Virus record (IMG/VR): IMGVR_UViG_3300038427_000078
Reading direction: 5' to 3' (one strand)
Origin: a virus
DNA length: 64,000 nucleotides
Shown: in pieces, positions 2,931-56,245 of the stretch
How the letters are laid out: each line of letters opens with the position of its first letter
How positions within the stretch are numbered: position 1 is the first letter of the stretch
Program-made: the position numbers and the translations under genes
Notes under the pieces: generated by a model
Databases searched by the model: none
Told to the model about the DNA's origin: nothing
Seen by the model: the letters and a program-made list of their open reading frames with translations, nothing else

Positions 2931-3796
2931 TGCCCAAAGAACTACCTATCCCTGGACCCCCACCCAACGAACCGTGGTCACTGTTCAAAGTAGTCCTAGT
3001 GCGACCCGGAGATGCGGTCATCTCTGCCTCTTCGGGGCGCATCCTACAGAACAAGAACAGCTACCTCACCGAAGTCCCTAATGGGCTGCGCGTGCCATGG
3101 TTTCCTACCGCCTTCGCAGGCAGCTTCGAAAACGTATGGAACAAAGAAACTAGCGAAGAGGTCACGAATAGGCTCGAACAGATTTGCACCATTGTCAATG
3201 ACCTCCGCGCATGTGTCATGGCCTACAACATGGTCGAAAAAAAGGAAGAAGTCGATCCCGAAGCTCACTTCCATGTTCGCACGGGCGAGCACCTGGATGC
3301 CCTACACGGGCCGGGTACCGCTGCGGCATTCGCGGATCGCATGGACCTCACCAAGACCTTTCCTGGTACACAGGCGGCGGTCGCAGAACGCATCCACAAG
3401 AACGGAGCCACCGTGGTCGAAACCGTCTGGACAAAGCAGGGTAAGCGGATCGCTGCTCTTAGGCTCCATCTCACCAAGGAGAGAGCGCATTATGACCGCC
3501 TCGAAGTCGAGCCTGAGTACCGAGGCAAGGGCTTCTACTCAGCGCTGATCCGTAGGCCGTCGTGGTGGAGGGAACTTGGAGTCAAGATCATCACCGCCCA
3601 GCCAGAAAACGAACGTTCTGAGCACGCGCTAGCGCTGGGCGGACTCCACTGGCAGGACTTTGAAGGCGAGCCTGTCTTTGGCGCACGGCTTGACCAGAGA
3701 GACAGAATGGACGACTATCGCGAGTGGCTAGCGACCGGCAAGGATCCCGATCAGGAACCAGAGTGGCGTCGAGAACTGCGCCTTCCAACCATGTAA
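2930..3796 (+). CDS. Protein with C-terminal GNAT acetyltransferase-like domain
   Basis: Acetyl-CoA motif A 'LEVEPEYRGKGFYSALI'; translationally coupled (TGATG). Confidence 0.6.
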   Translation: MPKELPIPGPPPNEPWSLFKVVLVRPGDAVISASSGRILQNKNSYLTEVPNGLRVPWFPTAFAGSFENVWNKETSEEVTNRLEQICTIVNDLRACVMAYNMVEKKEEVDPEAHFHVRTGEHLDALHGPGTAAAFADRMDLTKTFPGTQAAVAERIHKNGATVVETVWTKQGKRIAALRLHLTKERAHYDRLEVEPEYRGKGFYSALIRRPSWWRELGVKIITAQPENERSEHALALGGLHWQDFEGEPVFGARLDQRDRMDDYREWLATGKDPDQEPEWRRELRLPTM

Positions 3797-9383: not shown

Positions 9384-12292
9384 GCGCGCCTACAATCTCA
9401 CAGAACTACAGCGGGGTCATCCTCGATCTGAACAAGTCTCCGCGCTTAGGGATAAGCATTGAACCTGGACAGACCTACTACCAGACGTTCCTCCTACCGG
9501 AAGAACTACAGCGAGGAGTGTTCCCCAAGGAACAGCGCCTCCCGGCTCTGTCGGGCTTTCAGATCCTCATCGGCGTCAAGCAAAACCTAAGCGAAATCTA
9601 CGAGGCAAGCGCCGTCGAAGTCAACTACGTGCTCGAACAGTACGAGTTCGGATCTGGCTGGTCGCCGGTCACCAAGGGCACCCTCAAAGGCGTACCGTAC
9701 GGCAACTCACGGGTCTGGATCGATGTGCTGTTTGACAACCCCATCGAACTTAGCGAGAGTCAGGTGCCTAGCGAAAACCGCAACGAGGCTCCGACCGAGT
9801 TCCGGCTCGCGCTTAGCTTCCCCGCTGCGGTCGAAGTTCTATCCTACGTGACACCGAATCCGTATTCGCACGGCGAAGGGTACCATTCAGTCCCCAAGAT
9901 CACGAAAGCCGCGAAGGAAGCGAAAGTAGCTACTCAGAAATCGGGCCGCGAAGTACGCGAAACCGAAGAACTACACGAACGCGAAGCGTGGACAAAAGAA
10001 GAAGGCGAAAGCCTGATCACCAAACAAGAACGCGAAGCCAAAGAACGGGTCCAGAAGGAACTACGCAGGGTGGACGAGACTCACGAAGCCGAAGCGCGAG
10101 AAGAATGGCAGGAAGAAGTCGAAGGCATCATGCGGATCCACGGGTCGTTCAACTTCCGTCTGCTAGCATTGGTGGCGGACAGTGGCACCGACTTCCTCGG
10201 GGATCCCTATCGATCTGTCGCCATCGTGTCCGAAGCGCAGTCCGGAGGAGCTAACCCGAACACCGGCTACTGGCTGTCGTCACCGCAGCCGACACAGTTC
10301 GCTGTCGTCAGCCACTACTCAGATGTACGCCCGCTTCCAACCACGCCGACGTACGGCATCACCAACCTCATCGAGAACCCCAGCTTCGAGTACGACCTCG
10401 TAGGAGGTCTGCCTGCTCTATGGGTGGGAGCAGAAGGTCGAGAACTTCCAGAAGAGGAGGCTCTGCCTGCCGAAGAAATCGCAGCGGGTGAATGGCGTCA
10501 GCCGTTGCACGCGGTCCTCTTCTTCTCTGACTCCTCTGCTACCTTGAGAGTGAACCGCTTCCGGGGTGAATGGGAGGAACTGGAAGTCTACTCCAAGGGC
10601 GAAGGCATCAGCATCATCGAAACCCTTGAAGCGAAAATCCAGAAACAGAAAGAAGCTCGCGAAAAACGCGAAAAAGAGGAACGCGAAGCGCGTGAAAAAT
10701 GGGTGAAAGAAGAAGAAGCAACCGAAATCACCAAAAAAGAACGCGAAGAAAAAGAAACGAAACAGAAAGAAGAACGCGAACACGACGAGAAAGTCGAAGC
10801 CGAAGAACTCGAAGCCTTCGAACGGGAAGGTACCATTACCCGTACGTTTATCTCGAAGATCAACGAAAACCGTGCGCAGAACCCTCTCGGGTTTGAAGGT
10901 GAAACGTTTTGGGAAGAACGCGAAGGTCAGTTCTCCGCTATCAAGGGATTCCAGTACCTTGAAGTTGTCTCCAAAGGCGGCGGGGGTGTCGAACTCGATG
11001 AAGCAAGCGAAGTCCCGGTCAAGATCGGCGTGCCCATCACCTTGTCCTTCTGGATCCGCACGCAGAGCACGTCGTTGCCTATCGAAGTCCTCTTCGGTAA
11101 CGACATCGTGGGCGAAGTCACCGAAGAACTTGAGGCTACGGACGAATGGGTTCGTCACGAAGTCACTCTCCCCCCAACCGAAACGGGCACAGCCAACGTT
11201 GTGATCAGAGTACCATGGCTTCACGGCACCCAAGTCTTCTTCCTCGATGGGGTCATGGTGAACAACGGCAACAGCGCAGCTAAGTACATCGACGGCGACG
11301 TGATCAGTTGCCTCTGGAACGGCATCAAGGGTCGCTCATCGTCTGTTGAACTACAGGAACTCGAATCGGAAGAAAACTCCGTCGTGATCGACTCGATGCT
11401 CATCGACCCGATGACCTCGGGCGTTGGGATGAACGTCTACTACACCAACGACCTCACCGGCAGCGAGGGAGAAGGCGAACCGTCCATCGAAGATTGGGAA
11501 CAGAAGCTCTGGACGCGCGTGCCGCAGACCTACACCACATCAGGCAAGACCACCATCGTCCTCCCCGCTCCCATCGTGGCGAAGTTCGTCAAGCTAGAGT
11601 TCACCAACCTACAACCGAAACCGTACACGCCGGGTGACTACCAGCGTCCCACGCAGTACAAGCTCTTCCCGAATTGGGTGAGCGAAGTGTTCCTCAAGCT
11701 GCTCTCTAGCCCGAACTTCGTCGTCGGCAACGTGGGCGTGGTCTTCGACAAGCTCGAACTGATGTACCAATACTACAAGAAGGACTTGGAACAGCAGCCA
11801 AACAGCCCGATGATCAAGGCTGCCGAATCTGGCGAAGCTCAGGATCTTGCTGATCCGCAGACCCTCTCGCTCATCAATCAGGTCATCAACACCTACACCC
11901 AGCCACCGGCTGCGCAGGCTCCGCAGACCCTCATGGGCGAGGCGCAGAAGTCAGCGTCCCTCAAAGAAACCAACTACCCGGTCGAGCCGAACGCCGCCTT
12001 CAATGGCCCAGCGAACTTCCCGGTGTCTTCGCTCGACCGCACCAACATCGTCATCGACCAGGGCACGCCAGTCATGTTCTTCTACGTCACCTGCCGCCAC
12101 GCTTACAAGGAACAGACCGGCCTCTTCGCGGAAAACAAAGCGTACTACGCGGGCATCAAGCAACTAGCCTTCCTCCGCGAAAGCTACACCACCGTCGCGG
12201 ACGGCAACCTTTACATCGAGACAGGTGCCGATGACGTAAATACTGACAGGAACGATTTCGTCGTGGAAGACGGGATCTGGTACACAGACTGA
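9380..12292 (+). CDS. Minor tail protein with carbohydrate-binding-like domain and E/K-rich inserts
   Basis: 'NLIENPSFEYD' CBM4/9-like start; coupled ORFs. Confidence 0.65.
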   Translation: MSAPTISQNYSGVILDLNKSPRLGISIEPGQTYYQTFLLPEELQRGVFPKEQRLPALSGFQILIGVKQNLSEIYEASAVEVNYVLEQYEFGSGWSPVTKGTLKGVPYGNSRVWIDVLFDNPIELSESQVPSENRNEAPTEFRLALSFPAAVEVLSYVTPNPYSHGEGYHSVPKITKAAKEAKVATQKSGREVRETEELHEREAWTKEEGESLITKQEREAKERVQKELRRVDETHEAEAREEWQEEVEGIMRIHGSFNFRLLALVADSGTDFLGDPYRSVAIVSEAQSGGANPNTGYWLSSPQPTQFAVVSHYSDVRPLPTTPTYGITNLIENPSFEYDLVGGLPALWVGAEGRELPEEEALPAEEIAAGEWRQPLHAVLFFSDSSATLRVNRFRGEWEELEVYSKGEGISIIETLEAKIQKQKEAREKREKEEREAREKWVKEEEATEITKKEREEKETKQKEEREHDEKVEAEELEAFEREGTITRTFISKINENRAQNPLGFEGETFWEEREGQFSAIKGFQYLEVVSKGGGGVELDEASEVPVKIGVPITLSFWIRTQSTSLPIEVLFGNDIVGEVTEELEATDEWVRHEVTLPPTETGTANVVIRVPWLHGTQVFFLDGVMVNNGNSAAKYIDGDVISCLWNGIKGRSSSVELQELESEENSVVIDSMLIDPMTSGVGMNVYYTNDLTGSEGEGEPSIEDWEQKLWTRVPQTYTTSGKTTIVLPAPIVAKFVKLEFTNLQPKPYTPGDYQRPTQYKLFPNWVSEVFLKLLSSPNFVVGNVGVVFDKLELMYQYYKKDLEQQPNSPMIKAAESGEAQDLADPQTLSLINQVINTYTQPPAAQAPQTLMGEAQKSASLKETNYPVEPNAAFNGPANFPVSSLDRTNIVIDQGTPVMFFYVTCRHAYKEQTGLFAENKAYYAGIKQLAFLRESYTTVADGNLYIETGADDVNTDRNDFVVEDGIWYTD

Positions 12293-15200
12293 TGCCGGTA
12301 CAGCCGAACATACCCCTTGGAGATGAGTTCACCAACCTAGTGTGGACCAACTACACGTCGTTCGATGAAACGACGCGGGACCGTCTGCCTACTCAGAAGC
12401 ACTTGGACATCCGCCCGTTCACGGAAACCCCGATCCTCGCCAGCGGCGGAGACTTCCTTGCTCCGGAAGATTGGGAGCTACCTCCGAATAGCTCGACCGG
12501 ATCCGAAGCTGGCACCAAAGGCTTCCCCGTACTCAACCTCCGCACTATCGAAAACGGTACCGTCGAAGCCACATCCATTGTCAAGAGCCACCCGCTAGAC
12601 TTCACTCAGTTCGCCCCCACCGATCTGATCGTCTTCACGCTACCGTTCTATTCAGAAGCCGTGGTCGAGGCTACCTCAAGCTACATCGAATTCATCGACG
12701 CGCAGGGTCGCTCCGTCGCCATCAAATTCAGCGCAAGCGAAGTCGCACTCACTGGCGAAAATCCGTACTTCCAGGTCAAGCTCGAACGCCTTGAAGAAGC
12801 CGAACTCAGCCTCAATGAAATCGTCGGGGTACGGTTCAAGGTCGCGGCCACGGAAAGCATTATCGTCTACATCATGGGCCTTCGGCTCATCAAGGCTACG
12901 CTCTCCGAAGCACAGCCAGGTTGGGTCCAGGCACCGGCTGACTTCGACAACTGGAATGGTCGCTACCACAAGACAGTGCCGCTTGGCAGCCTCGAACGTG
13001 CTCCGGACTACCAGCAGAGCATCATCTGGAAGTCCGCTCCTCTTGCGGGACCGCTTGATCCTCGCGCCGTTGACACTGAGTTCGGCGTGGTGTTCAACGT
13101 TGGTGAACTCGCAAACTCGAACGAGTTCACTATGTACTTCCGCCAGGAATCCAAGATTTTCACGACCATGCTCGACCTCATCGGGGTCACCATGGCGGAA
13201 CTCGACGGTCGTCCGATGCCTGACCTTGGCACACGTCAGTTCAATCCACGCACCGTGGGCGAATTCGATGAGACAGAGATGGAAGAACTCGACCGCTTTG
13301 ACATGGAAGAACTTGAGCGTCAGGCAGTGCCTAACCCGGTGCTTGAGAGTTGGGTGTACTTCACCTTCGCGTGGGACAAAACGGAACCAAGCATCTCTAT
13401 GGGCAATAGCTCGGGCCTCTCGTACAACTTCCCCGACCTCGAAGGACTCGTCACCCTAGAACCGAAACACAACTACTTCGTTGTGTTCACTCTAGAAGGA
13501 TCCACTGCCCGCGCTCGCCTGTACGATCTAGAGCAAGTGCTTGAAGACGGCGGACTCGAAGAACTTGGGGCGGGTATCTACGAGCCGACCGGAGACTACT
13601 TCTCTGTCAAACAGACTCCTCTCTTTGACACGACCATCGTGGACGACGATAACGTGTTCCGTCGCCGTAAGGGACGCATTGGATGGAGCACGAACTTCCA
13701 AGATGGCGACGTGTTCCTCCGCTCGATCCGCCCACGCGGTGTGACCTTCGCGGAATATGAATCGGCTCCGCTCGAAAGCCACACACCTGTCGCTGGGGCC
13801 AGCCTGTTCGCCAGCGTACTACCGGAAGACACTTCTCTGTGGGGAGGAGGGCTTGCCCTCTACCCGGAAGGCACCACTCACTCCTTCCTAGAGCTTGACA
13901 AATCTCGCACGACTGTCAAGAACGGATTCAGCTACCGTGTCACCAACAAGGGTGTCGCCAAGCAGGGTGAATACCAGGGCTTGACCACCGAATTTATGAA
14001 CTTCACTGACTTCGAACAGATGCAGATCGAGTTCAATCTGTGGTACGCTGGCCCTGCTCGCGAACGCGAAAAGATCGAAAAGCTCTACCGTGGGTTCTAC
14101 CCTGGCAACAGGTCATTCCCTGGCCCGGAGCGTTACCCTGGTGCCAAAGTCATCGTCACCACCGAACCGACTGTCGCTAGCATCATCGCGGAGTTGGTCA
14201 GCACGGACGGTACTGTCATCCCTCTCGTCATGCCAGAACTCGAAACGAACCAGTGGCAGCATATCACACTGCGCGTTCCACTGTCGGAAGTCATCCAGAC
14301 AGGCTACTACCAGCTACGGATCCTACAGCAGACACGCCTCGCTACGAACTGGTGGCTCGATAGCCTCAAGGTCTTGCAGCGGGCCGTCGCATGGAGCGCT
14401 CGCTCAGTCACCCAGGATCCGTGGGGAGGTACCTACGCTCCGTGGACTGACTTCATGGACGTGGTGAATGACCGGGAACACAATAGCGGCATCTCGCTTG
14501 AGCCTCGCGGCAAGGAGCTACAGCTACGTGGACGTGCCCGCAGGCAAGACGTGACTATCCAGAAGCCACAGATCATACCTCGCTACGCAGAGCTAGGTCG
14601 TCTGGTGTGGCCGGAGGAAGCGTACCCTACCCTGCCTCAGCAGCTTGAAAACCTCATCCTCAACCCCAGCTTCGAGTATGACACACTCGCAACCTCTACG
14701 CCTAAAAGCTGGGCGTTCCCTACTCCTGGTATGACGCTCCATGTGTCAAACGAATGGGCCGCTGTCGGCACCAAGTCCTTCAAGGTCAAAACACCGAACA
14801 ACGCCACAGAATATGGTATGTTCATGGAACACTTCGCGACCGGCACGCCTGTCGAAGCTGGCTCCGTCTACAACTTCCAAGCAACGTTCAACGTTCTAGA
14901 ACTCACGAACGAACGCCACATCTTCGCCATCATCAAATTCTACAACGCCAAAGAAGAACACGTTGGCACGGAACACTTCACCAAACACATCACGACTACC
15001 GGAGTTCACACTATCAAGGCAAGCGTGACCGCCCCGGAAGAGGCCGTGACTGCCGAAGTCACACCGTTCTACATCCAGGGCGACGGCGTGGCCGAGTTCT
15101 ACATCGACAAGATTTACTTCGGAGAGGGTCCAGCCTACTTCGACGGAGACACCGCAGGCTACCATTGGACGGGTACGCACGGAGACAGCCGATCAATCAC

Positions 15201-46826: not shown

Positions 46827-46922
46827 GCGCCTGTAGCTCAGTGGTCAACGGTTCTCTTCGGGGAGCCAAAGAGTTGCCGCCTTTCAAGCGGTAGGTCCGG
46901 GGTTCGATTCCCCGTAGGCGCA
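46827..46922 (+). tRNA. tRNA-Glu(UUC) with extra hairpin in D-loop
   Basis: GCCGC-CTTTCAA-GCGGT; 96 nt. Confidence 0.8.
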
Positions 46923-50020: not shown

Positions 50021-50417
50021 GGGCCTTTCCCGGTAATCGATTGGGTAGGTTCGGCAGTATGTCATGCAGCGGTCGTCACACCTACCTGACAAAAGCCATA
50101 ACTGGCAACGCAACAGACACGCTCGCAATCCCCGCATCTCTCTTCGAGGTTCGGGCTAGCGACGTACTCGCTGTAGCCTAAGAAGCTACAAGCCGGGACC
50201 AGCCGAGTATCCTGGGAACAGAAACCTCGGAGGGCAGTGAGCGCCATGCCCTTGACGTGCAGAGTACCGTTGTAGTTACACCGCAAGGTGTTGGTAGCAC
50301 CCCGCGCGTTCCCGGACGTATAACCGGGTGGTGGAGGCGGGCCATGCCTGTCCCAAAGCTGCTAGAAGTGACGCCTGTACGAGACTCAAGACGGCAGTTC
50401 GACTCTGCCAAGGTCCA
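50021..50417 (+). ncRNA. ssrA: tmRNA
   Basis: Acceptor GGGCCTT/AAGGTCC-A with G3:U70; T arm GGCAG-TTCGACT-CTGCC; ATAACT then tag ORF 50104-50181 GNATDTLAIPASLFEVRASDVLAVA*. Confidence 0.92.
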
Positions 50418-50451
50418 CTAAAACAAGGTCCATCCGTGCTAGAATAGATGG

Positions 50452-54290: not shown

Positions 54291-54353
54291 CTCAGTGGAT
54301 AGAGCGTCCGGTTGCGATCCGGGAGGTCGGCGGTTCGAGTCCGTCCAGGGAGG
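54281..54353 (+). tRNA. tRNA-Arg(GCG)
   Basis: TCCGG-TTGCGAT-CCGGG. Confidence 0.85.
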
Positions 54354-54381
54354 TACGTTAGAACCCTGCTAAGGTGTAGAT

Positions 54382-54561
54382 ATGCCTTACGCAGATAGAG
54401 AGAAACAGGCGGCGTATCAACGCGATTGGTACCGACGCCACAAAGAGCAACATATCAACCGTATTCGTAACGAACGTCGTAAGAGGCGTGAAGTGGTCAA
54501 CGAATACAAGCTCTCAAGAGGGTGTAACCGATCGCGGGTTCGATTCCCGCATAGTGCTTAG
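54382..54561 (+). pseudogene. Truncated HNH gene fused to a tRNA 3' fragment
   Basis: MPYADREKQ...VNEYKLSRGC resembles the 52274 N-terminus, then GCGGG-TTCGATT-CCCGC-ATAGTGC. Confidence 0.7.
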
Positions 54562-54568
54562 ATCAAAC

Positions 54569-55155
54569 TTCGTATCAGGCGGTTGCTGCGCTTGAAAGAC
54601 AGCGTAGAGGAAGTTCGGGGCATGCTGGCAGGGGAAACCTTGTCATCGGCTCAACTACACCGAGTGACACCGGCCCAAAGGAGGTACGCCCTCGTTGGTG
54701 TTCCGGCGCATGCAACTCCAAGTAGAGAACCCTACGGCGAAAGCTATGGGCATATCGGGTTGGAGGCTTAGATGGATGATCGCCACCAGTTACGACTCAG
54801 AGGAGAGACATGAACTACTGTGAAGCGATGGCCTACGTCGCGGGGCTGTTGGAGGGCGAGGGATGCTTCGATTTCGTAGCTCCCGGCCATCCAAGGATCC
54901 GCATGGAGACAACAGATGAAGATGTGGCATACTGGCTTCAACACTTGGTTGAAGGTGGGACAATCACTAATCGTCAGGGCAAACGCAGTAATCACAGCGA
55001 TTCGTTTGTGTGGCAAACGAGCAGGGCTGATGTGGTCAAGAAGGTCTTGACGGCAATCTATCCTTGGACAAGTGCTCGCAGGCGAGTAAAGATTGATGAA
55101 CTCATGTCTGCTCTCTGAGCCGTAGTTGGTACAGAACCCCGGCTATCGATACGAA
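54569..55155 (+). ncRNA. rnpB: RNase P RNA (reduced), with ORF inserted in P19
   Basis: P1 TTCGTATC/GATACGAA; P2 GGCGGTTG/TGATCGCC; P3; CR-I GAGGAAGTTCGGGGC; P5 CATGC/GCATG-CAA; P15 CTCCAA/TTGGAG; TAGATGGATGAT; CR-V ACAGAACCCCGGCTA. Confidence 0.88.
54810..55118 (+). CDS. Single-motif LAGLIDADG homing endonuclease
   Basis: 'AYVAGLLEGEGCF...IRMETTDEDV...GG.I...FVW...LTAIYPW...RR'; AGGAG RBS. Confidence 0.88.
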   Translation: MNYCEAMAYVAGLLEGEGCFDFVAPGHPRIRMETTDEDVAYWLQHLVEGGTITNRQGKRSNHSDSFVWQTSRADVVKKVLTAIYPWTSARRRVKIDELMSAL

Positions 55156-55196
55156 TATGCCCCTCGGCTCTGTTCAGAACGGCTTGGGGGCACCAA

Positions 55197-55270
55197 GCCT
55201 GTGATGCAGAAATGGTGCTGCGCTCGCCTTGTAAGCGAGAATAGACTCGGTTCGATTCCGAGCATAGGCT
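55197..55270 (+). tRNA. tRNA-Thr(UGU)
   Basis: CTCGC-CTTGTAA-GCGAG. Confidence 0.88.
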
Positions 55271-55434
55271 CTGACTGCGCTCTTGCAAGCACCGGGAACC
55301 GGCGTGCGGCAGAGCGGCGCGCTGGTCACCCGTGGCTAGTCCTCATTTGCTCAACGCACCCCGGATTAGGGATTGGGCAGGCTAGTCTAGTGTGAGTACC
55401 CACTGATCGCGATGAGCGTGAGGGGAAATCCAAT

Positions 55435-55505
55435 GCGGATGTGGCGTAATGGTAACGTATTTGCCTTCCAAGCAAAGGTTGCGGGTTCGACTCCCGTCTT
55501 CCGCT
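55435..55505 (+). tRNA. tRNA-Gly(UCC)
   Basis: TTTGC-CTTCCAA-GCAAA. Confidence 0.9.
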
Positions 55506-55850: not shown

Positions 55851-55900
55851 CTCATAACTCACAGGCTCCTTTCGAGCCATTTCCGGGCGCATAATGCTTG

Positions 55901-56245
55901 ATGGCATACAAGAACAAGGTCGATCAAGCAGCCTCTTCTCGTCGTCATTACCTTCGTAACCAGAAGGCGATGAAGGAGAGGGCTGAACTCAAGAACCGCG
56001 AACGTCATGCAGAATACGCGGAGAAGATCAAGGTTGCGAAGGCTAGACCTTGCGCCGATTGCAACATCGAATACCCTCACTACGTCATGGACTTCGATCA
56101 TGTGCGTGGCAAGAAGGTCGGGAACGTATCGACCATGGCTCATGCCTTGCGACCTTGGAAGCTGATCGAACAAGAGATTGCGAAGTGCGATGTCGTCTGT
56201 TCTAATTGTCATCGAGAGCGTACGTATGTTCGACTCTCCGCATAG
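55901..56245 (+). CDS. HNH endonuclease
   Basis: 'PCADC..YPHYVMDFDHVRG.K...EIAKCDVVCSNCHRERT'. Confidence 0.9.
   Translation: MAYKNKVDQAASSRRHYLRNQKAMKERAELKNRERHAEYAEKIKVAKARPCADCNIEYPHYVMDFDHVRGKKVGNVSTMAHALRPWKLIEQEIAKCDVVCSNCHRERTYVRLSA

Follow-up and report, generated by a model that had tools for sequence, protein, structure and literature searches.

The window analysed here is a stretch of 64,000 nucleotides from a large uncultured phage that encodes a cut-down RNase P ribozyme itself. At the P19 position of this RNase P RNA gene, a homing-endonuclease gene of the LAGLIDADG type has probably settled, and no intron accompanies it. The earlier note on this DNA had interpreted the locus as an endonuclease gene looped out of the P19 helix of a phage RNase P RNA; as a description of anatomy and evolution, this interpretation is supported.

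Judged by its sequence, the segment 54569-55155 (plus strand) is a phage-encoded, size-reduced homologue of class-A-type RNase P RNA. It is located in a phage tRNA array and comprises about 241 nt once the insert is subtracted. The assignment draws on homology to relatives and not on an Rfam score of the window itself. The RNase P model search suggested in the earlier note, performed with the insert in place, gave no match: Rfam reported no RNase P family for the window at the gathering score, for 54350-55440 at E ≤ 10, or for 54560-54800, a piece whose end is not flush with the 3' strand of P2. Note that the gathering score of RF00010 is 100 bits, and that the window's relatives score 28-67 bits, which is below this cut-off. 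The host of the insert was shown to be a homologue of RNase P RNA through L174 (412-690 on the minus strand), a metagenomic relative devoid of the insert that matches RF00010 over model positions 1-367 with 51.6 bits (E 3e-15). The global identity between L174 and the RNase P RNA of the window is 77-79%. L174 is also the kind of insert-less rnpB allele for which a search had been proposed: at the position of the insert it carries just CTAG, and its junction reads GATGATCGTC-CTAG-ACAGAACCCCGGCT. In BLASTN, nt 40-242 of L174 align to 54607-54782 with E 3e-19, and nt 249-264 align to 55131-55146; consequently, a stretch of 6 nt in L174 stands opposite 348 nt of the window.

The RNase P parts found in the window are CR-I, P4 with its bulged U, the GGU of L15, J18/2, CR-V, and the helices P1, P2 and P3 (Table 1). 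P1, P2 and P3 are arranged in the canonical order, and the 3' strand of P2 precedes J2/4 and the 3' strand of P4. In P4, which is formed by CR-I and CR-V, AG(U)UCGGGG pairs at 8/8 positions with CCCCGGCU. Compensatory variants of this helix occur in L081, L069, L068, and L082; the pairs read AG(U)UCAGGG/CCCUGGCU in L081 and GG(U)CGGG/CCCGCC in L069. In P1, P2 and P3 the sequences vary among the window, L174 and L081, whereas the pairing is kept. The complementarity of P1 is maintained in both relatives despite sequence differences, the homologous P2 of L174 (GGACGGT/ATCGTCC) is annotated by Rfam, and the location of P3 agrees with the Rfam alignment of L174. The earlier note had let the 3' strand of P2 end at 54784. 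This is correct for ATCGCC, and the preceding TTAGATGGATG had to be reassigned to J18/2. The L15 GGU, J5/15 and J18/2 motifs of the window (GCAA...CGGGUUGG...UUAGAUGGAUG) align to the consensus via L174, whose GCAA...CGGGU was aligned by Rfam to the consensus of the J5/15-P15 region. The specificity-domain region (P7-P14) is confined to only about 90 nt between CR-I and J5/15, and Rfam left its counterpart in L174 unaligned; a MAFFT alignment of 9 sequences (413 columns) is poor across this domain. Since the specificity domain is too reduced for an Rfam alignment, ribozyme activity is not assured.

Table 1. Features of the phage RNase P RNA gene and of its insert (positions refer to the window)
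Feature	Position	Strand	Evidence and remarks
P1, 5' strand TTCGTATC	54569..54576	+	8/8 pairs with 55148-55155; in the MFE fold of the full RNA
P2, 5' strand GGCGGT	54578..54583	+	partner ATCGCC 54779-54784
P3 hairpin, CUGCGCU / 8-nt loop / AGCGUAG	54586..54607	+	consensus fold of window, L174 and L081
CR-I GAGGAAGTTCGGGGC	54607..54621	+	5' strand of P4 54612-54620; bulged U is U54614
Strongly reduced specificity-domain region	54622..54711	+	alignable to L174; Rfam aligns no P8-P14 there in L174
J5/15 GCAACUCCAAGUAGAG and P15 region	54712..54767	+	L15 GGU 54758-54760; conserved with respect to L174
J18/2 TTAGATGGATG and P2, 3' strand ATCGCC (54779-54784)	54768..54784	+	Rfam consensus uAGAugAAUG and P2 3' strand, via L174
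Closing (P19) helix, 5' arm	54785..54813	+	holds Shine-Dalgarno GAGGAG 54800-54805 and ATG 54810-54812
Gene of 102-aa single-domain LAGLIDADG homing endonuclease	54810..55118	+	ORF; Pfam, PHROG, AlphaFold2/Foldseek
Closing (P19) helix, 3' arm	55102..55130	+	holds final five codons and stop TGA 55116-55118
CR-V	55131..55144	+	J2/4 ACAGAA 55131-55136; P4 3' strand CCCCGGCU 55137-55144; identical to L174 nt 249-264
P1, 3' strand GATACGAA	55148..55155	+	pairs with P1 5' strand; MFE fold

Independent assemblies of different samples yielded the same sequence in 10 contigs, so it is not an assembly artefact. Among the samples containing this phage are the peat samples JGI 3300018017, 3300009636 and 3300018023. 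The RNase P gene and its insert are invariant among these contigs; the sole difference is one base at 54512, upstream of the gene. When the region was compared with cultured phages by means of BLASTN, only a tRNA-Gly similarity was detected, and a scan for promoters and terminators found none inside or adjoining the RNase P RNA. Directly upstream of rnpB, the 3' half of a tRNA is fused to a truncated HNH-like ORF, both being decayed elements. A flanking ORF of 223 aa has no relative in viral contigs.

The insert lies exactly between the 3' strand of P2 and CR-V, i.e. at the position of P19; it is bordered by GATGATCGCC, which ends at 54784, and by ACAGAACCCCGGCT, which begins at 55131. The earlier note had estimated about 345 nt for this interval; the exact length is 346 nt (54785-55130), and the coordinates were right. 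Its ends had been proposed to pair over about 29 bp with 3 mismatches, and 26/29 pairs, including G-U, were indeed obtained: segments of 10, 8 and 8 bp, separated in this order by a 1x1 mismatch and a 2x2 loop, join the first and the last nucleotide of the insert. RNAduplex assigned -35.4 to -36.4 kcal/mol to this closing helix, compared to a mean of -15.6 ± 3.5 for shuffled arms; its energy was reached by 0/500 shuffles and, in a separate run, by 0/1000. Among the inverted repeats within 600 nt in the 64-kb window, the helix (I1) is listed at the top and is the longest. The GAGG of the Shine-Dalgarno sequence (54800-54803) is paired to 55112-55115, the start codon to 55103-55105, and the stop codon to 54797-54799, which verifies the claim that the ribosome binding site and the ATG pair with the last codons and the stop of their own ORF. 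Coding sequence makes up 309 of the 346 nt. The 37 non-coding nt are too few for an intron core, and Rfam detected no intron family around the ORF at E ≤ 10; the view that a group I or group II core is absent thus holds. In 17 insert-less phage relatives, the P19 site is occupied by a hairpin (7/17) or by a linker of 3-4 nt (10/17), in agreement with P19 being variable and dispensable.

The ORF in the loop encodes a LAGLIDADG fold. The Pfam family LAGLIDADG_3 matched with 19.2 bits (E 0.0015), which is below the curated cut-off of 22.5, and PHROG 5046 matched with E 6e-13. The AlphaFold2 model (pLDDT 92.8) has the topology alpha-beta-beta-alpha-beta-beta-alpha. The top PDB matches listed by Foldseek are all LAGLIDADG proteins (I-CvuI, I-CreI, I-TnaI), with E-values down to 1.6e-5 and best TM-scores of 0.76-0.77. 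The motif VAGLLEGEG comprises residues 10-18, and the LAGLIDADG helix ends in an intact acidic catalytic residue; residues A11 to F20 (AGLLEGEGCF) are invariant among 7 relatives. Fold model and invariant motif hence agree with the 102-aa LAGLIDADG ORF that the earlier note had seen in the loop. A homodimer joined via the LAGLIDADG helix is predicted with an ipSAE of 0.85 (best control 0.01), where the mark set for this score was reached by 20/30 proteins solved as pairs and by 1/23 solved as single chains. The predicted dimers agreed in at least 94% of the contacts between runs, and the pLDDT of the partner was 92; the score may stem from the model's memory of solved I-CreI dimers. Inspecting the putative target in L174 by eye revealed no convincing pseudo-palindromic symmetry.

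The association of this endonuclease with RNase P RNA genes is recurrent. All 9 relatives at 44-61% identity are located within the 3' portion of a phage rnpB gene or abut it, whereas 0/89 relatives at 26-40% identity (80 viral and 9 bacterial) lie at an RNase P RNA gene; no RNase P motif occurs in the vicinity of the 9 bacterial LAGLIDADG loci, which come mostly from actinobacteria and MAGs. ORFs belonging to the clade of the window's endonuclease reside inside P19 in four other phage RNAs (L069, L081, L274/L275, L276), and five free-standing members (L068, L268, L272, L080, L082) are flush with the 3' end of rnpB in tRNA arrays. As far as these sequences tell, members of this clade are specialists of the 3' part of rnpB in phages, and its presence or absence among related RNase P RNAs is patchy. 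In the case of L274, the Infernal match to RF00010 (positions 1-320, 67.1 bits, E 1.4e-20) stops exactly at the start of the insert. Closing helices were found in L274 (35 bp, -37.2, reached by 0/500 shuffles), in L276 (25 bp, -38.4, 0/500), and, as an interrupted one, in L069 (-21.0, 4/500); among the five P19 inserts, that of L081 lacks a significant closing helix. The helices of the window, L274, L276, and L069 are unrelated in sequence, each encloses the start and the stop codon, and they span from the first insert nucleotide to 0-2 nt short of CR-V.

RNase P RNAs were also encountered in other phages. A variant of CR-I was detected in 67 viral contigs, 17 of which contain a matching CR-V 158-400 nt downstream. 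Of these 17, 13 were scanned with Rfam; most of the fetched stretches contain tRNA clusters, and two of the contigs match RF00010 at 255 and 191 bits. Three complete phage genomes possess an RNase P RNA and lack an RnpA gene, so host factors are needed by these phages in any case. The pattern GATGATCG-N(320-350)-ACAGAACCCYGGCT does not occur in viral contigs. The pattern TAGATGGATGATCG does; for the 80 listed of its 90 matches, the 600 nt upstream contain no CR-I motif, and they were dismissed as chance matches. The literature searched, whose scope leaves out most subscription journals, contained no paper on a phage RNase P RNA and no endonuclease gene within rnpB; phage-encoded RNase P RNA genes appear to be undescribed there.

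These data suggest the following course of events. In the RNase P RNA, P19 would serve as an optional peripheral hairpin. As the closing helix puts P2 and P4 back in register, the ribozyme core could still fold and splicing would be unneeded. The endonuclease would cut the insert-less rnpB of co-infecting phages, putatively at the conserved GATGATCG..ACAGAA junction, and repair of the cut alleles would spread its gene. The primary transcript would double as ribozyme precursor and mRNA. Because the ribosome binding site, the start and the stop are inside a duplex of -36 kcal/mol, translation of the ORF would be restricted, presumably to the interval that precedes transcription of the 3' arm, or to molecules whose helix has been opened or cut. 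With respect to the fate of the loop, we give an even chance to cleavage by host RNase III, which would leave a base-paired ribozyme of two pieces; retention comes not far behind, and a small share is left for other outcomes.

A course resembling that of the intervening sequences (IVS) of bacterial 23S rRNA, which is a variant of the preferred explanation, deserves closer consideration. RNase III would cut the 26-bp helix, the ORF loop would be freed to act as mRNA or to decay, and P1, P4 and what remains of P19 would join the two pieces of the ribozyme non-covalently; the mature ribozyme would then not also be an mRNA. As a reading of the locus as a whole, we rate it slightly below an even chance. 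Substrates of RNase III usually comprise 25-35 bp, and a long double-stranded stem is present at the base of the element in the window (26 bp), in L274 (35 bp) and in L276 (25 bp). Helices of 25-35 bp with unrelated sequences, kept in three lineages, are far beyond what is needed to close a loop; since RNase III acts on helices of this length, removal of the loop with no religation has to be taken seriously as an alternative. After the cut, the 3' piece would still be paired by 8 bp of P1, 8 bp of P4 and about 10 bp of P19. However, a natural RNase P RNA made of two pieces is not known to us, and the 1x1 and 2x2 internal loops could block or restrict cleavage. Moreover, L081 has no long helix and that of L069 is interrupted, so cutting by RNase III is not universal in the clade. 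A precedent exists in the IVS of Coxiella burnetii, an ORF-bearing element of 428 nt in helix 45 of 23S rRNA, which RNase III excises without religation (PMC4990558).

Two further explanations were weighed. It is improbable that the insertion killed rnpB and left a pseudogene, with the phage using the RNase P of its host and the helix being an inverted-repeat footprint or a translational control of the element. The missing Rfam match of the window and the lack of RnpA in the three complete phage genomes would fit this explanation, and the decayed neighbourhood immediately upstream, with its broken tRNA and truncated HNH-like ORF, makes a dead rnpB conceivable. On the other hand, the core motifs and helices are all intact and covary with those of relatives, and the RNA sequence is unchanged across the 10 independently assembled contigs. 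The insertion is at the sole place where relatives accept a variable hairpin; inserts at this very site are present in five divergent RNAs, and the helices end 0-2 nt from CR-V, as expected under selection for the fold. We regard as very improbable a spliced intron of an unrecognised or trans-acting (e.g. protein-dependent) kind, whose removal would yield a continuous, insert-free ribozyme. LAGLIDADG genes usually reside in group I or archaeal introns, but no known ribozyme core is small enough for the 37 non-coding nt, Rfam showed no intron family at E ≤ 10, and the bulge-helix-bulge splicing machinery is archaeal and not bacterial. In favour of an intron, large 16S rRNA insertions with LAGLIDADG genes in CPR bacteria have been reported as introns (PMC8172020).

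A comparison with known systems helps to place the locus of the window, for which an endonuclease gene settled at P19 without an intron is the preferred explanation. With class A RNase P RNA (E. coli M1 RNA/rnpB; RF00010), it shares the order P1-P2-P3-CR-I...P15/L15(GGU)-J18/2-P2'-J2/4-CR-V-P1' and the bulged U of P4. In contrast to class A RNAs of 330-400 nt, the RNA of the window (about 241 nt) is encoded by a phage, has nearly lost its specificity domain, and carries a protein-coding insert in P19. The enzymes I-CreI, I-CvuI and I-CeuI stem from group I introns of rRNA genes, and I-DmoI and I-Vdi141I from archaeal rRNA introns. The protein of the window resembles such intron-encoded LAGLIDADG enzymes in fold, motif, single domain and predicted homodimer, as well as in having a gene looped from a structured RNA and, as its likely target, a highly conserved sequence of a structural-RNA gene. 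It differs in that the insert contains no intron and that the host RNA would be restored by closure of a helix and not by splicing; furthermore, the protein comprises only about 100 aa, whereas the solved enzymes listed by Foldseek have 147-302 aa. Free-standing phage homing endonucleases beside their target genes, such as SegB in the tRNA cluster of T4, are matched by five members of the clade; unlike these, the copy of the window lies within the RNA gene itself, as do four others. Translation of I-TevI, encoded in the td intron of T4, is reportedly limited by sequestration of the ribosome binding site. In both I-TevI and the ORF of the window, this site and the start codon are buried in RNA structure; in the window, however, it is the 3' end of the ORF itself that sequesters them, and the helix so formed is at the same time one of the helices of the host ribozyme. 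The 23S rRNA IVS of Coxiella burnetii is likewise selfish, measures some hundreds of nt and occupies a peripheral helix in a structural RNA that is essential; both elements have a long closing helix and an ORF, and the insert of the window, too, would do without splicing or religation. Whereas the S23p ORF of Coxiella is decaying and untranslated (PMC4990558), the ORF of the window is apparently an intact homing endonuclease gene with a Shine-Dalgarno sequence; in addition, the host of the former is an rRNA and that of the latter a ribozyme, for which excision by RNase III is hypothetical.

Stripped-down RNase P RNAs encoded by phages are common beside phage tRNA arrays, including that of a cultured jumbo cyanophage, and are overlooked by Rfam thresholds and GenBank annotation. 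P19 would constitute a permissive insertion site, which may be of use in tagging or engineering RNase P RNA. The endonucleases of 100 aa are among the smallest of their fold; given this size and their probable target in the highly conserved RNase P core, they are candidates for compact meganuclease scaffolds. If the preferred explanation is true, a catalytic RNA accommodates a complete, translated gene in one of its peripheral helices and presumably still works, which would also be a natural example of a single primary transcript being both ribozyme and mRNA, and the niches of selfish endonucleases would be widened. It is reasonably likely that homing endonuclease genes thereby gain, beyond introns, inteins and free-standing positions, a further niche in a dispensable helix of a ribozyme: folding would restore the function of the host RNA, the helix would gate translation and perhaps allow release by RNase III, and a clade of mini-LAGLIDADG proteins would have specialised on phage RNase P RNA genes.

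Judged by alignment to relatives, the RNA that carries the insert is a genuine homologue of class A bacterial RNase P RNA (Rfam RF00010), though a strongly reduced one; since it does not reach the 100-bit Rfam threshold, it formally falls outside the family by that criterion. In the window itself, Rfam gave no RNase P match at the gathering score, nor at E ≤ 10 on 54350-55440, nor on 54560-54800. Sixty-seven viral contigs contain the CR-I variant GAGGAAGTTCGGGGC, and 17 of them have the matching CR-V ACAGAACCCCGGC 158-400 nt downstream. Thirteen of these 17 were scanned with Rfam; most of the stretches taken contain tRNA clusters, and two contigs, both complete genomes with terminal repeats, matched RF00010 at 255 and 191 bits. 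A metagenome scan with a longer pattern yielded L174, an insert-less close relative, whose 279-nt RNA covers RF00010 model positions 1-367 (51.6 bits, E = 3e-15) and has a global identity of 77-79% to the window RNA. BLASTN places nt 40-242 of L174 on 54607-54782 (E = 3e-19) and nt 249-264 on 55131-55146; the tetranucleotide CTAG is the counterpart of the window's 346 nt. Through this alignment the window RNA shows every core element, and P4 covaries among relatives (UCAGGG/CCCUGG in L081, GG(U)CGGG/CCCGCC in L069). The specificity domain is cut down to about 90 nt and is not alignable by Rfam.

Core elements of the window's RNase P RNA and the tmRNA call
Feature	Position in window	Strand	Basis
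P1	54569-76 / 55148-55	+	alignment to relatives
P2	54578-83 / 54779-84	+	alignment to relatives
P3	54586-607	+	alignment to relatives
CR-I	54607-21	+	alignment to relatives
P4, bulged U54614	54612-20 / 55137-44	+	alignment to relatives
J5/15	from 54712	+	alignment to relatives
L15 GGU	54758-60	+	alignment to relatives
J18/2	54768-78	+	alignment to relatives
CR-V	55131-44	+	alignment to relatives
tmRNA	50021-50418	+	ARAGORN; tag GNATDTLAIPASLFEVRASDVLAVA*

An earlier note had described a LAGLIDADG gene looped out of P19, and its sequences and coordinates were reproduced: 346 nt separate the end of GATGATCGCC (54784) from ACAGAACCCCGGCT (55131). Of the 3' strand of P2, which the note let end at 54784, only ATCGCC belongs to that helix; the preceding bases are J18/2. 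The insert ends pair as proposed, 54785-54813 with 55102-55130, in 26 of 29 positions; stretches of 10, 8 and 8 bp are separated by a 1x1 mismatch and a 2x2 loop, in that order. This duplex has an energy of -35.4 to -36.4 kcal/mol, compared with -15.6 ± 3.5 for shuffled arms, none of which was as stable (0/500; 0/1000 in a separate run). No inverted repeat found within 600 nt anywhere in the window is longer, and none is listed ahead of it. It is still there, along with P1 and P3, in the minimum-energy fold of the full 588-nt RNA. The loop is the 102-codon ORF 54810-55118, whose Shine-Dalgarno sequence GAGG, ATG and TGA stop are all base-paired inside the closing helix. The hairpin between the 3' strands of P2 and P4 is called P19 in RNase P nomenclature. 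Bacterial types A and B are both given a P19 in PMC2858038. Among 17 insert-less phage RNase P RNAs this position holds a 3-4-nt linker (10) or a 4-7-bp hairpin (7), so that the insert lies where these RNAs tolerate a helix being present or absent; the P19 label is right.

The ORF matches PHROG 5046 (E = 6e-13); its match to Pfam LAGLIDADG_3 is sub-threshold (E = 0.0015). AlphaFold2, given an alignment with seven relatives, produced an alpha-beta-beta-alpha-beta-beta-alpha(-alpha) fold with a pLDDT of 92.8. The top Foldseek matches listed from the PDB are all LAGLIDADG proteins (I-CvuI, I-CreI, I-TnaI, I-Vdi141I, I-MsoI, I-CeuI), with best TM-scores of 0.76-0.77. The motif AGLLEGEGCF is unchanged across the seven relatives, and the acidic residue at the catalytic position is retained. 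A homodimer through the LAGLIDADG helix was predicted with an ipSAE of 0.85 (best control 0.01); since I-CreI-type dimers have been solved, this may express likeness to them and not be independent evidence. Of 30 proteins whose solved structure is a pair, 20 attain this ipSAE mark, as does 1 of 23 whose solved structure is a single chain. The runs have at least 94% of their contacts in common, and the partner chain has a pLDDT of 92.

The genomic setting of close relatives of the protein was checked as far as it could be traced. For all nine at 44-61% identity, the gene is located within the 3' part of a phage RNase P RNA gene or adjoins it, and they form an endonuclease clade specialised on such genes. 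The next two relatives (38-40% identical; L083, L271) have no RNase P RNA nearby, and paired CR-I and CR-V motifs were absent near 80 viral and nine bacterial relatives at 26-40% identity; at two of the 80 viral loci an unpaired CR-I-like match is present, well beyond 200 nt from the gene. Viral contigs L175-L254 hold a large LAGLIDADG family (matches of about 90-110 codons, 26-40% identical to the window's), none adjoining RNase P RNA.

Setting of the endonuclease genes and closing helices of the P19 inserts (shuffles: number reaching the energy)
Locus	Protein (identity)	Setting	RNA vs RF00010	Pairs	kcal/mol	Shuffles
Window				26	-36.4	0/500
L069	P0003 (49%)	inside P19		23, interrupted	-21.0	4/500
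L081	P0005 (47%)	inside P19		not significant	-17.1	187/500
L274/L275	P0029 (46%)	inside P19		35 (L274)	-37.2 (L274)	0/500 (L274)
L276	P0020 (45%)	inside P19		25	-38.4	0/500
L068	P0002 (60%)	same strand, within about 35 nt downstream of RNA 3' end	53 bits, E 3e-14			
L268	P0009 (51%)	same strand, within about 35 nt downstream of RNA				
L272	P0102 (49%)	same strand, within about 35 nt downstream of RNA				
L080	P0004 (48%)	convergent, gene 3' end overlaps RNA 3' end				
L082	P0006 (46%)	convergent, gene 3' end overlaps RNA 3' end	31.6 bits, E 7e-7			

In all five loci with a P19 insert, pairing begins at insert nucleotide 1-3 and stops 0-2 nt short of CR-V, with the start region and stop codon both enclosed. 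What is conserved in the closing helix is its structure, not its sequence. With Infernal in truncation mode, the RNA of L274 matches RF00010 positions 1-320 (67.1 bits, E = 1.4e-20), and the match stops exactly where the ORF insert starts. L274 and L276 are AT-richer with a canonical P18, which places the arrangement in two or more subfamilies of these phage RNAs. Insert-less alleles of the RNase P RNA gene (rnpB), which the earlier note had suggested seeking in related phages, do exist (L174; 17 insert-less RNAs were compared). Presence of the insert is patchy with respect to RNA similarity: the insert-less L174 is nearer to the window and to L081 than these two are to each other, a pattern that fits mobility in a small sample.

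The window has a G+C content of 57%. Its region at 44.7-55.9 kb holds 28 tRNA genes plus a tmRNA predicted by ARAGORN, every one of them on the + strand, with small endonuclease-type ORFs scattered among these genes; no match to the tmRNA family was found anywhere in the window at the Rfam gathering score. At least 20 contigs, drawn from many samples and up to 172,635 bp long, encode a protein identical to that of 54810-55118; the source is a large uncultured phage. Ten contigs compared show no difference in RNase P gene and insert, the sole variant in 54500-55200 being one base at 54512, upstream, so the locus is not an assembly artefact. A 96-nt tRNA-like gene (46827-46922; Rfam tRNA 57.5 bits, anticodon unassignable by ARAGORN, 'ga') could be a tRNA that carries an insert or has an unusual anticodon loop. 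A 59-aa ORF (54382-54561), weakly similar to the N-terminal half of the HNH endonuclease ORF 55898-56245 (BLASTP E = 0.001), runs into a tRNA 3' half (54510-54558) with a perfect T-arm CGCGGGTTCGATTCCCGC and acceptor strand; no 5' half was seen on reading the sequence upstream. A deletion seems to have joined what is left of a tRNA to a degenerate HNH gene; in L068 and L081 an intact tRNA immediately precedes the RNase P RNA. A hairpin element, AATATGCCC(C/G)...GGGC, which could be a processing or promoter element, follows the RNA in the window (55156-55196) and in L012. In L068 (about 3040-3070) it stands after the free-standing LAGLIDADG gene and not directly after the RNA, as if the gene had been inserted between the two.

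Complete phage genomes that carry RNase P RNA include the DTR-complete IMG/VR records of L012 and L057 (168 and 300 kb) and the GenBank entry MW495066.1 of Microcystis phage MaAM05, a jumbo cyanophage in culture with a genome of 274 kb. The latter has a full-length class A RNA at 115284-115683 (L256; RF00010 251.8 bits, E = 8e-84), where its record annotates no feature. No match to the RNase P protein family PF00825 was found in these three genomes; the phage RNAs therefore presumably use the host protein subunit. The RNA of L033 (minus strand, about 11974-12443; Rfam RNaseP_bact_b 38.5 bits) resembles the window's by eye in P3, CR-I and the first hairpin; it has a 36-nt P19 hairpin and a different insert of about 190 nt in the specificity domain. 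GCAGCAA/TTGCTGC closes this insert, which has a possible ORF of 66 codons (MSYKTAEAIAK...). A search of full-text literature, with subscription journals mostly outside its scope, found no paper on an RNase P RNA encoded by a phage, nor any on an rnpB gene that contains an endonuclease gene.

The interpretation of the earlier note is supported as anatomy and evolution; the comparisons show the anatomy with its P19 site, the homology, that no intron is present and that the clade is specialised. The closing helix would re-create P19 and put P2 and P4 back in register, so that the catalytic core could fold without splicing; simple pseudogenisation of this rnpB copy appears improbable to us. Cryptic splicing of the insert is less probable still: as the note had stated, no intron core is visible, Rfam finding neither a group I nor a group II intron at E ≤ 10 (54350-55440), and with 309 of 346 nt coding, only 37 non-coding nt are left. 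The probable target of the endonuclease would be the conserved GATGATCG / ACAGAA junction of rnpB alleles that lack the insert. LAGLIDADG-type enzymes leave a 4-nt overhang, and one may speculate on the similar size of the 3-4-nt linker in these alleles. Translation of the ORF would occur only ahead of 3' arm synthesis or once the helix is opened.

For the fate of the loop, we consider it about an even chance that RNase III cuts it out without religation, since closing helices of 25-35 bp, far beyond the need of loop closure, have the size of RNase III substrates. After such a cut, a two-piece ribozyme joined by P1, P4 and the P19 stub would result. Retention of the loop in the RNA, as the earlier note had it, seems to us somewhat less probable than excision. 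The ORF-bearing 23S IVS of Coxiella is removed by RNase III without religation (PMC4990558). The window insert would resemble such an IVS in its way of working and represent a homing endonuclease gene in a new niche.
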